Positions 54,816 to 60,056 of a DNA stretch of 64,000 bases are shown here, one piece after another. The notes beneath the pieces were generated by a model. It did not search any database. It saw only the letters and a program-made list of their open reading frames with translations, and had not been told where the DNA came from. The first letter of the stretch is position 1. Each line of letters opens with the position of its first letter. A program made the position numbers and the translations under genes. Source of the DNA: Candidatus Micrarchaeota archaeon (GTDB taxonomy: Archaea; Micrarchaeota; Micrarchaeia; Norongarragalinales; SBBD01); contig JAHJQN010000003.1 in assembly GCA_018819225.1 (NCBI GenBank), forward strand, positions 204,310-268,309, given 5' to 3'.

Positions 54816-55916
54816 TTGTTTGTGGAAGATTCAGCTATTCAACGTACGCCATTCTACGAAATGCATGTGCAGCATCGCGGTCGCATGGTGCCGTTTGCCG
54901 GATGGGAAATGCCCGTACAATACGAAGGCATCAAGGCCGAACACCTCGCCGTAAGACGTTCGGCCGGGCTCTTCGATGTTTCGCACATGGGAGAAGTCGA
55001 TGTCAAAGGACCGCAAGCGACCGCATTCGTTCAAAACCTCATTACCAACAATGTGCACAAGATCGTGCAGAACCAGTGCCTCTATTCCCCCATGTGCTAC
55101 GAGAACGCAGGCATCGTCGATGATTTGCTCGTCTACAAGCACGATAGCGAACACTACATGCTCGTGATCAACGCTTCGAATGTCGAAAAGGATTTTTCGT
55201 GGATGCAAAAAAACAATTCCGTGAACGCGGAGTTGAAGAATATTTCCAACGAGACCGCTCAACTGGCCGTGCAGGGACCTCGCGCGCTAGCCATTCTGCA
55301 AACACTCACTTCCGCGAACTTGGAATCCATTAAAACATTCTGGTTCCAGATGATTGAATTGTCTGGAGTCCGCGTACTCGCATCGCGTACCGGGTATACG
55401 GGAGAAGACGGATTCGAATTGTATTTTCCTCCGGAGCACGCGAAAACGGTTTGGAATGCGATCGTGAACGCCGGAAGTTCCGAGGGCTTGCAGCCCACGG
55501 GACTGGGCGCACGGGATTCGCTGCGTTTGGAAGCCGGACTCATGTTGTACGGAAACGACATCGACGAAAACAGCACGCCATTTGAAGCGCCATTGAAATG
55601 GACCGTTGACTTGAATACCGAGTTTATTGGAAAGAAGGCATTGCAACAGAATCCGCCGAACAAAAAACTCGTGGGATTCGAACTCCTGGAAAAAGCCGTG
55701 GCCCGACACGGAAATCCCGTAGTAATTAACGGGAATGAAGCCGGCGTGGTGACGAGCGGAGGGTATTCGCCGTTACTCGAGAAAAGCATCGGCTTAGCGT
55801 ACGTTCCCGTTGACCACCCCGAAACATTCCAAATCCGAATCCGCAAGGAAAAAGACGTTGAAGCCAAGAAATGCGGTTACCGGTTCTATAAACGAAAGAA
55901 AAAGGAGATCGCATGA
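54816..55916 (+). CDS. gcvT: glycine cleavage system aminomethyltransferase T
   Basis: [45 protein letters not shown]. Confidence 0.96.
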
Positions 55917-56287
55917 AGTTTACCAAGGAGCACGAGTGGGTGAACGTGGTGGATGGAATGGTAACCGTCGGCATCTCGGACTTCGCGCAAAAAGCGTTGG
56001 GGGACGTGGTATCCGTCGAGTTGCCGAAAGTAGGGAAGACGTTCAAGCAAGGAGAAAGCATGGCCATCGTCGATTCCATGAAAGCCTCCTCGGACGTTTA
56101 CGCGCCCTTGAGCGGTAACATCGCGGAAGTCAACAACGAATTGGTGAACCACGCGCAGTGGGTCAACGAAAGCCCTTACGAAAAAGGATGGATGGTCAAA
56201 ATCAAAATCGCGGATTCCAAGGAAATGGATTCATTAATGGATGAAACCGCTTACAACGAATTCTGTGCAAAGCAACCCGCTCATTGA
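55913..56287 (+). CDS. gcvH: glycine cleavage system H protein
   Basis: HEW, VGISDFAQ..LGDVV, lipoyl-Lys motif DSMKASSD.YAP, VNESPY..GW. Confidence 0.95.
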   Translation: MKFTKEHEWVNVVDGMVTVGISDFAQKALGDVVSVELPKVGKTFKQGESMAIVDSMKASSDVYAPLSGNIAEVNNELVNHAQWVNESPYEKGWMVKIKIADSKEMDSLMDETAYNEFCAKQPAH

Positions 56288-56298
56288 GGAGTAGAGAA

Positions 56299-57615
56299 AT
56301 GGATTACGTGCCCAACCGCAAACAAGAACAAGAGGAGTTACTGAAAGCCATTGGAGCCGAACGCATCGAACAACTGTTCGAGAACGTTAAACCTCAACTC
56401 AACCGCCCGCTTCAACTCCCGAAACCTCTAAGCGAATGGGAGATTAAGCAAACGTTGGAACAATTGAGCCTCAAGAACACGTCCTTTCGCGCGATCTTTC
56501 GGGGGGCTGGCGCGTACCACCACTACATTCCATCCGCGATCAACCAGATACTTCTAAGATCCGAATTCTATACCGCGTATACTCCGTATCAAGCCGAGGT
56601 TTCACAAGGCACGTTAACCGCCATCTATGAATTCCAGACGTATATCTGTATGCTCACGGGCATGGACGCTGCAAACGCCAGCATGTACGATGCCGCAAGC
56701 GCCCTCGCCGAAACCGCTCTCATGGCCTACGCCCAAAACGAGCGCCGGGAAGTGGTTTGTTCCAATACCGTACACCCGCATTACGTGGCAGCCGTGCGAA
56801 CGTATTGCCAAGCGCACGATATGACCATTAAGACAAACGAAAGCGACATCAGCGATCAAACGGCGTGCGTCATGATTCAATACCCGAACTTTTTCGGGGA
56901 AGTAGAGGACGTGAAAGCGCTGGCAGAAAAAGCGCATGCGAACGGAGCACTATTCGTCGTATGCATCGGAGATGCTTCATCCATGGCGCTATTGGAACCC
57001 CCAGCCTCATTAGGCGCGGATATCGTCGTGGGGGACGCACAAGCCTTCGGCATTCCCATCGGCGGAGGCGGACCGTACGCTGGCTTTCTCGCCGTACGAA
57101 AAGAATACATCCGACGCATGCCCGGACGCCTCTCCGGAATGACGAAAGACGACCGCGGACAAACCGGGTTTATTTTGACCCTGCAGGCCCGCGAACAACA
57201 CATCCGCCGAGAAAAAGCGACCAGCAATCTGTGCACGAACCAAGCCCTCATGGCCCTGGGCGCCACCATTTACTTGAGCTTGCTCGGAAAAAACGGGTTG
57301 CAGAACGTTGCCAAACACTCGTACACGAATGCGCATCGATTCCTCGAACAACTGCAACGCGAAGGATTCCATCGCATCGGATCCGCCGCGTTCTACAACG
57401 AGTTTCGCGTGAAAAGTCCCGTGGATGTCAACGAATTGAACGCGCGGCTGGCTCGCATCGGAATACTGGGAGGGCTCGCGCTTCCCAACAACGAAATGCT
57501 CGTGTGCTGCACCGAATGCATCACGGAAACGCACATGCGAGAATTTGTTGAACAGGTTCGGGAATTAAAGACATTGCCGGCCAATGCCACCGCCAGCCCA
57601 CACCCCATTCCGTGA
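56299..57615 (+). CDS. gcvPA: glycine dehydrogenase subunit 1
   Basis: GAGAY.HYIP, RSEFYTAYTPYQAEVSQG, NASMYD, GGP, LQAREQHIRREKATSNLCTNQ. Confidence 0.95.
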   Translation: MDYVPNRKQEQEELLKAIGAERIEQLFENVKPQLNRPLQLPKPLSEWEIKQTLEQLSLKNTSFRAIFRGAGAYHHYIPSAINQILLRSEFYTAYTPYQAEVSQGTLTAIYEFQTYICMLTGMDAANASMYDAASALAETALMAYAQNERREVVCSNTVHPHYVAAVRTYCQAHDMTIKTNESDISDQTACVMIQYPNFFGEVEDVKALAEKAHANGALFVVCIGDASSMALLEPPASLGADIVVGDAQAFGIPIGGGGPYAGFLAVRKEYIRRMPGRLSGMTKDDRGQTGFILTLQAREQHIRREKATSNLCTNQALMALGATIYLSLLGKNGLQNVAKHSYTNAHRFLEQLQREGFHRIGSAAFYNEFRVKSPVDVNELNARLARIGILGGLALPNNEMLVCCTECITETHMREFVEQVRELKTLPANATASPHPIP

Positions 57616-57621
57616 TACTCC

Positions 57622-59337
57622 ATGGAACTCATCTTCGAAAAAAAAGGAACGCCCTCGGAATACGTGCCGCCATGCAACGAAACGCTTCCCGAACCATTCA
57701 CGCGCAACGATTTGCCGTTTCCCGAAACCAACGAAGTGCAAGTGGTCCGGCATTACGTTAAATTGTCGACATGGAACTTCGGAGTGGATTCCGGCATGTA
57801 CCCGCTGGGCTCGTGCACCATGAAATACAATCCCAAAATCAATGAAGAAGTGGCGCGGCTGCCGGGATTTGCGGGCGTGCACCCCCTCTCCGAGGAAACG
57901 CACGTTCAAGGCGCTCTTCAACTCATGTACGAGCTCGAGGAATACTTGAAGGAAATCACGGGCATGGCCGCCTACACCCTTCAACCGTGCGCGGGCGCTC
58001 ACGGAGAACTTACCGGCGTCATGATCGCAAAAGCATATTTCGTTCACCGGGACGAAAAACGCCACAAGATCCTGATACCAGATAGCGCTCACGGCACGAA
58101 CCCGGCCAGTGCATCCATTTGCGGATTCGAAGTCGTCAATATTCCCTCGAACGCGAAAGGAGGATTGGATATCGAAAAGCTGCGAGAGACTGTCGACGAA
58201 CAAACGGCCTTGTTAATGATCACGAACCCGTCCACGCTCGGACTCTTCGAGGAAAACATGGAGGAAATCGCGCGAATGGTTCACGCGAAAGGCGCGTTAT
58301 TGTATTGCGATGGCGCCAACCTCAATGCCATGATGGGAGTCTTACGCCCGGGCGACCAAGGAGTCGACATCATTCACCTGAACCTTCACAAAACGTTTTC
58401 CACGCCGCACGGAGGCGGCGGTCCGGGAGCCGGACCCGTTGGCGTCACGAAAGCCCTGGAACCGTTTCTCCCCATTCCCACCTTGCGCCGAAACGGAGAG
58501 CGATATGCGTTGGATTACGATCGGCCGAAAAGCATAGGCAAAGTGAGTACGTTCAACGGAAACTTCGGCGTACTCGTTCGCGCATACACCTACATTCGCG
58601 CCCACGGCCCCACATTGAAAAAGCTATCTGAAAACGCGGTATTGAACGCGAACTACTTGATGCACGCCCTCAAGAAGGAATTTCATTTACCATTCGATCA
58701 AGTTTGTGCGCATGAATTCGTATTATCATCCACGCATCAACAAAAACACGGCGTTCATACCATGGATATTGCCAAGCGACTTCTGGATCACGGCGTTCAT
58801 GCCCCCACCATCTACTTCCCACTCATCGTCAACGAAGCGTTGATGATCGAACCCACGGAAAGCGAGAGCAAGGAAAGCCTCGATCATTTCATTCATGCCA
58901 TGAACGAGATTGCCCGCGAAGCGCGTGAAAATCCCGACGTGCTGAAACGTGCTCCCGTTCATACCCCCGTCGGAAGACTGGATGGCGTGCTGGCCGCTCG
59001 AAAACCGAACGTGCGATGGACCCCTCCTACAACCCCTCCACTTCCCTCAGGAATTCAGACGGGTTCCAGCATACACAAAGCACAGAAACTCGTCAAGATA
59101 CGCCTTGAATACGAAAACAATTCGATTCGAAAGATAATGATTCGCGGGGATTTCTTCATGCATCCGGAAGATCAACTGGAAAACCTTGAAGCGTCATTGA
59201 ACGGAACCGCACTCGACGCGGAAGCATTGGAAGCCCGCATCCGATCATTCCTTGAAACCGTTCAAGTATTCGGATTCGACGAGAAAAGTCTAACCGTAGC
59301 CATCCTGAAAGCCGCGGGAAAAGGGGAAAGGGCATGA
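57622..59337 (+). CDS. gcvPB: glycine dehydrogenase subunit 2 fused to C-terminal LplB-like lipoate-ligase accessory domain
   Basis: [22 protein letters not shown]-Lys [14 protein letters not shown]. After AARKPNVRW, a Pro-rich linker and a ~94-aa domain with [18 protein letters not shown]. Confidence 0.92.
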
Positions 59338-60056
59338 ACATCCGTTATCTTAAAACGGGAGCGAATTCCGCCGCATTCAACATGGGCTTGGACGAAGTCA
59401 TGATGCGCCGCGTGACGGTCCACGAACCCGTCCTCCGATTTTACTCGTGGAGTCCGCCGGCAGTAAGCATCGGATACTTTCAAGGATTGGAGGAGGAAGT
59501 GGATCTCCAGGCATGCGAAAAAGCCGGCGTGGACGTGGTTCGACGCATTACGGGAGGCGGCGCCGTTTTCCACGATACGGAACTGACCTACTCCTACATT
59601 ACGCGAGAGTACCCGAAGGACATCCTCGAATCGTACCACTTGATTTGCGGGGGCATCATCAAAGGCCTTCAGCGCTTAGGCATCGAAGCCCAATACGCAC
59701 CCATTAACGACATCCTCGTAAACGGGAAAAAAGTATCCGGTAACGCGCAGACCCGAAAGCAAGGCGCGTTGCTTCAACACGGCACCATTCTCCTGAAAGT
59801 CGACGTGGAAAAAATGTTTTCCTTACTCCGAGTACCGTCCGAAAAAATCCGCGATAAAATGGTGCAAAGCGTTAAGGAACGAGTGGCCGGACTCGAAAAA
59901 AACTGGGAAGAGGTGGCACCCGCCCTCGAACAAGGCTTTTCCGAAGTGCTCGGGGGATCTCTGCAAACCAGCGAACTCACTGAAGAAGAACGCGAGGCCG
60001 CGCAACTTCTCGCGCGTAAAAAATATGCGAGCCACGAATGGAACTTTTTCCGATAA
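59334..60056 (+). CDS. lplA: lipoate-protein ligase A, catalytic domain only
   Basis: [25 protein letters not shown]...[14 protein letters not shown]; 240 aa with no C-terminal domain. Confidence 0.92.

Follow-up and report, generated by a model that had tools for sequence, protein, structure and literature searches.

Is the accessory subunit of a bipartite lipoate ligase built into the P-protein of the glycine cleavage system in this archaeon, and, if so, does the joint tie the lipoylation of GcvH to the decarboxylase? The question is raised by one gene within a 64,000-nucleotide stretch of DNA, hereafter the window, from the metagenome-assembled genome (MAG) of a Candidatus Micrarchaeota archaeon. 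The genome belongs to a DPANN archaeon and comprises 1.37 Mb on 8 contigs at approximately 90% completeness.

Architecture of the fusion gene

The list of open reading frames and the translation revealed a single 571-aa frame at 57622..59337 on the plus strand, which starts with ATG and has zero internal stops. Its first 466 residues (57622..59019, +) form the GcvPB core. The NCBIfam model NF003346 (aminomethyl-transferring glycine dehydrogenase subunit 2) matched this part with 729.6 bits against a cut-off of 441 and covered model positions 36-487 of 487, with the last model position falling on aa 466, the W of ...NVRW at nt 59019. The GcvPB assignment thus relies on a full-length match above the curated cut-off, and the GcvPA, H and T proteins are encoded alongside. 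A 16-residue GcvPB motif is present in the window protein and identical in P0002, a second fusion protein discussed below; its lysine is the one that we take to bind PLP.

Past W466 the reading frame stays open through an 11-residue stretch. The Pro/Thr-rich linker (aa 467-478; 59020..59055, +), modelled by AF2 with low pLDDT, holds neither a stop nor a canonical start codon. No in-frame ATG, GTG or TTG was found between W466 and M506, and M506 already lies within the LplB or Lip_prot_lig_C domain (aa 479-571; 59056..59337 including the stop codon, +), which was matched by PF10437, NF053749 and PDB 3r07_C. In the Pfam search the tail reached 30.4 bits over aa 491-543 with PF10437 (Lip_prot_lig_C), above the gathering cut-off of 24. 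With the NCBIfam LplB model NF053749 it scored 58.0 bits as part of the whole protein and 62.2 bits as the tail alone over aa 486-564, both below the cut-off of 65, as do most free-standing LplBs of its relatives. A profile built from the tail and 24 relatives matched LplB of Thermoplasma acidophilum (PDB 3r07, chain C) with an E value of 2.1e-17 and covered the whole domain. All 10 invariant LplB columns of the 25-sequence alignment, namely two Lys, GDFF, PE and two Gly, are kept in the tail. LplB is here not a free-standing subunit of about 90 aa, being fused in frame and devoid of an internal start.

In the AF2 model the tail adopts a beta-beta-beta-beta-alpha-alpha-beta-alpha fold with block-mean pLDDT values of 81-96 over aa 491-560. 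Ahead of it, pLDDT drops below 50 over aa 450-476, a stretch that is read from the model as a flexible or disordered linker of roughly 12-25 residues. The mean pLDDT of the full-length model was 72. Judged by its sequence, the 571-aa frame is a genuine two-part polypeptide made of a complete GcvPB and LplB.

The downstream ligase gene and the modelled complex

The next gene, lplA (59334..60056, +), encodes a protein of 240 aa that consists of the catalytic subunit only, with a PF21948 match of 175.7 bits and no PF10437. Its start overlaps the end of the fusion gene by ATGA, an arrangement by which lplA is, as read from the nucleotides, translationally coupled to the fusion gene. The lysine motif GKKISGNAQ of LplA was invariant across 20 homologues. 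Two features of a bipartite LplAB ligase are present in the window: LplA is without a C-terminal domain of its own, and its gene adjoins an lplB region.

Complex modelling of LplA with the excised tail gave an ipSAE of 0.90, compared to 0.29 for the best control; in the calibration, 58 of 80 solved complexes and 2 of 110 mismatched pairs came up to the ipSAE mark. Three runs shared at least 97% of the contacts, and the partner pLDDT was at least 89. The modelled interface brings aa 506-516 of the tail, which form the GDFFxHPE strand, together with residues 47-51, 72-77 and 138-142 of LplA. As a like complex, 3R07, has already been solved, the high score may reflect memory and indicates likeness only. 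By this model the tail would bind LplA in the manner of the Thermoplasma LplA-LplB pair.

A preliminary description of the locus had read it as a GcvPB-LplB fusion in which GcvPB homology stops near 59019, with neither a stop nor a nearby ATG across the linker, followed by a catalytic-only LplA of 240 aa that overlaps by ATGA. These points agree with the family models, which match both domains within one open frame, and with the position of the next in-frame start inside the LplB domain. The family search that it had proposed for the tail came out in its favour as well.

Operon and genome context

Directly upstream of the fusion gene lie gcvT, gcvH and gcvPA, all on the plus strand and joined to their neighbours by 4-nt overlaps or a 6-nt gap. 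The aminomethyltransferase gene gcvT (54816..55916, exact start codon uncertain) was matched by PF01571 with 323 bits and by PF08669. It is followed by gcvH (55913..56287; PF01597, 147 bits), encoding the lipoyl carrier and substrate of the ligase, and by gcvPA for the alpha subunit of the P-protein (56284..57615; PF02347, 430 bits). The product of gcvH was the sole GCV_H match above cut-off in the genome.

The tail of the fusion is the one copy of the LplB domain in the approximately 90%-complete genome, and a second lplB could sit in the missing 10%. Likewise, this LplA is the one protein with an LplA/LipB/LipM-type domain. Since the tail is the sole LplB of the genome, LplA would have to use the GcvPB-tethered domain to form the acyl-adenylate. 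A further consumer of lipoyl groups is encoded on contig C8 (33320-38894; L178:3320-8894, minus strand), where a lipA-E1alpha-E1beta-E2-E3 operon specifies a 2-oxoacid dehydrogenase complex along with lipoyl synthase. Because of this operon GcvH is probably not the only substrate of the ligase; presumably the sole ligase serves E2 as well.

Integrity of the junction

An open frame in a MAG might also result from a sequencing or consensus error that removed a stop or a frameshift between two separate genes. The sister genome does keep gcvPB and lplB apart, and the MAG itself was probably built from the only public run that contains the stretch, a groundwater metagenome. In the Logan assembly of this run, the region lies on a contig of 201,875 bp with a depth of 16.3, is identical over 58700-59700 and exhibits no variant. 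The agreement of two assemblers at this depth rules out an assembler error; an error in the library would be shared, since the Logan assembly probably draws on the same reads as the MAG. Against an artefact also stand the fusion frame itself, in which no canonical start that could serve a separate lplB lies between W466 and M506, so that a single error would not suffice, and the independent natural fusion P0002 in another lineage, recovered in two assemblies. We give hardly any credence to an explanation by sequencing error.

Distribution of fused and unfused genes

The gene order gcvPA-gcvPB-lplB-lplA occurs in unfused form in the sister genus (locus L018 of genome G002, same family), where a stop separates gcvPB from lplB. 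The same unfused order was observed in another Micrarchaeia MAG (L019) and in five Nitrosopumilales genomes (L015-L017, L028 and L043). The window proteins are 74% (GcvPB), 57% (LplB) and 66% (LplA) identical to those of L018; over all of these unfused operons the identities range between 52 and 74%, 37 and 57%, and 51 and 66%, respectively. The LplB profile retrieved 80 metagenome loci; 48-50 of them showed this unfused order, without a single fusion.

Within the order of the window genome, LplB was present in 16 of 60 relatives, each time as a short free-standing frame, and GcvPB was found in 2 of 61 genomes, the window genome and G002. A phylum-wide sample of 401 genomes contained 161 with LplB, and only in the window genome did LplB lie in a frame of more than 500 aa. 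No GcvPB-LplB fusion was detected among 301 genomes of the order to which L016 belongs. The preliminary description had suggested a search for this architecture across GTDB archaea; the fusion does exist among archaea, yet it is rare, with one case in the 161 LplB-bearing genomes of the phylum sample. An apparent third fusion, a 593-aa open frame in genome G495, was discarded, as the nucleotide sequence has a TGA that parts gcvPB from an in-frame lplB.

Among 5.8 billion protein clusters, only P0001 and P0002 came up with a GcvP-LplB architecture, a figure that comes from word- and pattern-limited searches of libraries clustered at 50% identity, in which fusions can be hidden. A HMMER search with the tail against 1.84 billion representatives gave no match of GcvPB length among the best 150; this library cannot serve for counting fusions, because the query's own cluster was not visible in it either.

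The unfused relatives keep a stop between gcvPB and lplB, and in several of them it is a single in-frame stop. In several Nitrosopumilales, lplB lies in the frame of gcvPB and is one TAA or TGA apart from it (L015:4217-4219, L016, L017, L183:3698-3700; genomes G642, G454, G415 and G558). An enrichment of this same-frame arrangement was considered and dismissed, as it was present in 11 of 48 adjacent metagenome loci compared to about 16 expected by chance. Since the arrangement is not enriched, there is no sign of programmed readthrough.

A second fusion and the origin of the locus

P0002 is a second GcvPB-LplB fusion from an unrelated metagenome, 52% identical to the window protein and assembled twice (ENA and Logan). 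Its gene is preceded by gcvPA and followed by lplA with the same ATGA overlap. In a maximum-likelihood tree of the GcvPB core, the window protein grouped with that of the unfused L018 (100/100), its nearest named relative being a Micrarchaeia MAG. P0002 was placed inside the Nitrosopumilaceae/Cenarchaeum clade next to the unfused L015-L017 (100/100). As the two fusions sit in separate clades beside unfused sisters, the fusion arose at least twice, each time recently. Comparison of the P0002 junction with the unfused L015 revealed a short deletion that removed the stop and the first LplB residues; the junction in the window and that of L018 are too diverged to read the exact mutation.

Compared with their counterparts in Nitrosopumilales, LplB and LplA encoded in the window show 39-51% and 51-57% identity; with the free-standing pairs of the genome's own family (L004-L014), the values are 31-41% for LplB and 47% (in genus g4) for LplA. 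The whole gcv-lplBA block seems to travel together, because both proteins are nearer to those of Nitrosopumilales than to those of the family. These comparisons, along with the presence of GcvPB in 2 of 61 genomes of the order, suggest that the block was moved horizontally and that the window genome lacks the family-typical lplB-lplA pair. The starting point would have been an unfused gcvT-H-PA-PB-lplB-lplA operon, common in Nitrosopumilales and present in a few Micrarchaeota, in which the gcvPB stop codon and a short spacer were lost to yield GcvPB::LplB.

LplB joined to other partners

Among longer proteins, those most closely related to the tail are of the radical-SAM-LplB type (P0009, P0016, P0029, P0104 and P0154). 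At locus L122, a 403-aa lipA::lplB gene (1574-2785) stands between gcvPB and lplA, followed by lpd; L128 holds the same gene set in unfused form, with lipA followed by lplB (1623-2776). At L098, a 402-aa LipS2::LplB (383-1591) is followed by lplA. The partner of LplB is the preceding gene in L122 and L098, and lplA itself in L132. That the partner in L122 and L098 is the gene in front agrees with stop-loss fusion within compact operons and with an LplB N-terminus that tolerates a tether.

Some further arrangements were observed. The protein in L132 (2495-3502), a 335-aa LplB-LplA of the circularly permuted Lpl(BA) type, is encoded about 1.1 kb downstream of gcvPB on a metagenome contig. In about nine Micrarchaeota genomes, LplB lies in frames of 365-408 aa. 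P0154, from a Candidatus Parvarchaeota archaeon, carries the plain NCBI name 'lipoyl synthase'.

Possible functional consequences of the tether

According to the model, LplA would dock on the tethered LplB via its GDFFxHPE face and, once docked, would form lipoyl- or octanoyl-AMP. The acyl group would then pass to apo-GcvH. E2 of the 2-oxoacid dehydrogenase would presumably receive it in the same way, with LipA inserting sulfur afterwards if octanoate had been attached. The tether would fix LplB and GcvPB at a ratio of 1:1 and put the ligase near the P-protein. We infer both LplA binding and ligase activity for the system in the window. The explanation that we consider probable is a stop-loss fusion in a conserved gcvPB-lplB-lplA operon, with LplA using the tethered domain. 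Most likely the fusion is an accident of compaction in operons, near-neutral and prone to recur, and did not evolve as a means of channelling.

The preliminary description had gone further and held that the lipoylation of GcvH is physically coupled to the decarboxylase. The tether would then be adaptive, recruiting LplA to the place where GcvH docks, permitting lipoylation on site and tying the ligase to the level of the P-protein. Such coupling would agree with the tail being the sole LplB of the genome, with the same fusion having evolved twice, and with the strongly conserved gcvPB-lplB-lplA order, which marks a dedicated link between the ligase and the glycine cleavage system. However, each fusion occupies a tip of the tree with close unfused sisters, and the fused form is confined to one of the 161 LplB genomes in the phylum sample and to none of the approximately 50 adjacent metagenome loci. 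The modelled linker is disordered, and AF2 did not dock the tail confidently on the GcvPB body (mean pLDDT 72). LplB also joins whatever gene precedes it, be it LipA or LipS2, and the E2/LipA operon needs a ligase too. The role of LplB points in the same direction: Christensen and Cronan reportedly found in 2009 that LplB is required for the formation of the adenylate and not for the transfer to the acceptor. Functional coupling is for these reasons unlikely, and the claim of the preliminary description found no positive support. A wider scheme would regard LplB as a portable docking module that, fused to GcvPB, LipA or LipS2, recruits LplA to whichever enzyme handles the lipoyl carrier next. 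In this archaeon an assembly of P-protein, LplA and GcvH would then lipoylate GcvH on site, and GcvH might pass lipoate on to E2; we regard this scheme as unlikely.

The opposite view would be that the tail is a functionless remnant of LplB and that LplA acts as a LipM-like octanoyltransferase which feeds LipA without LplB. LipA is encoded in the genome, and the tail scores slightly below the NCBIfam LplB cut-off (58-62 versus 65). There is also a precedent, as LipM-type enzymes evolved repeatedly from LplA via loss of LplB (PMC10332631). Against a relic speak the retention of every invariant LplB residue, the confidence of the models in both the fold and the LplA interface, and the 57% identity that the tail shares with the separate LplB protein of the sister genus, reached over a sequence with no stops or frameshifts. 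A relic is very improbable. Stop loss with a working tether therefore stays our preferred explanation. The fusion is probably near-neutral; as the same pair was fused twice independently, the arrangement could also be mildly advantageous.

Relation to known lipoate ligases

The bipartite ligase LplA-LplB of Thermoplasma acidophilum (PDB 3R07; Christensen and Cronan 2009, PMID 19520844, and Posner et al. 2009, PMID 19594830, as cited in PMC3904984) has two features in common with the system in the window: LplA, some 240-250 aa long, comprises the catalytic part only, and an overlapping gene directly upstream codes for an accessory domain of approximately 90 aa. In contrast to the free LplB of Thermoplasma, LplB of the window is the C-terminal domain of GcvPB and is encoded within a glycine cleavage operon. 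Single-chain ligases include Lpl(AB) of the E. coli type and, in Streptomyces coelicolor, a circularly permuted Lpl(BA) (PMC10332631). They contain the same two domains as the window system and show that LplB tolerates a tether at either end; however, LplB is fused there to its own catalytic partner, whereas LplB of the window is attached to an unrelated PLP enzyme, with LplA a protein of its own. The LipA::LplB and LipS2::LplB proteins (P0154, L122 and L098) and the LplA-LipA fusions of NCBIfam NF053790 (LplA_LipA_fuse) resemble the fusion in the window in that LplB or the whole ligase is joined to a neighbouring gene of the lipoyl pathway. The partner in the LipA and LipS2 fusions is a radical-SAM enzyme for sulfur insertion, whereas the partner in the window makes use of the lipoylated protein.

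NCBIfam provides exception models for LplAB and LplA-LipA fusions, and none that matches the window protein is a GcvPB-LplB fusion model. A GcvP-LplB fusion was mentioned neither in the archaeal survey PMC3904984 nor in the 2023 survey PMC10332631, and a targeted full-text search of the literature returned no description, in line with the remark in the preliminary description that none was known. GcvPB-LplB is thus apparently an undescribed domain architecture of a known bipartite ligase. The present evidence does not reveal a new mechanism; the fusion looks like sporadic stop loss in a widespread operon.

The locus bears on annotation as well as on biology. As the fusion gene is called plain GcvPB, annotation pipelines miss the sole LplB of the genome, and a metabolic reconstruction would wrongly score the ligase as incomplete if LplB is hidden in a 'GcvPB'. 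The protein is a ready-made natural construct for asking whether a tethered LplB works. As a natural 'Rosetta stone', the fusion links the bipartite ligase of archaea with glycine cleavage: gene structure by itself confirms that the lplB-lplA pair found beside gcv genes in ammonia-oxidising archaea and in some DPANN archaea is part of that system.
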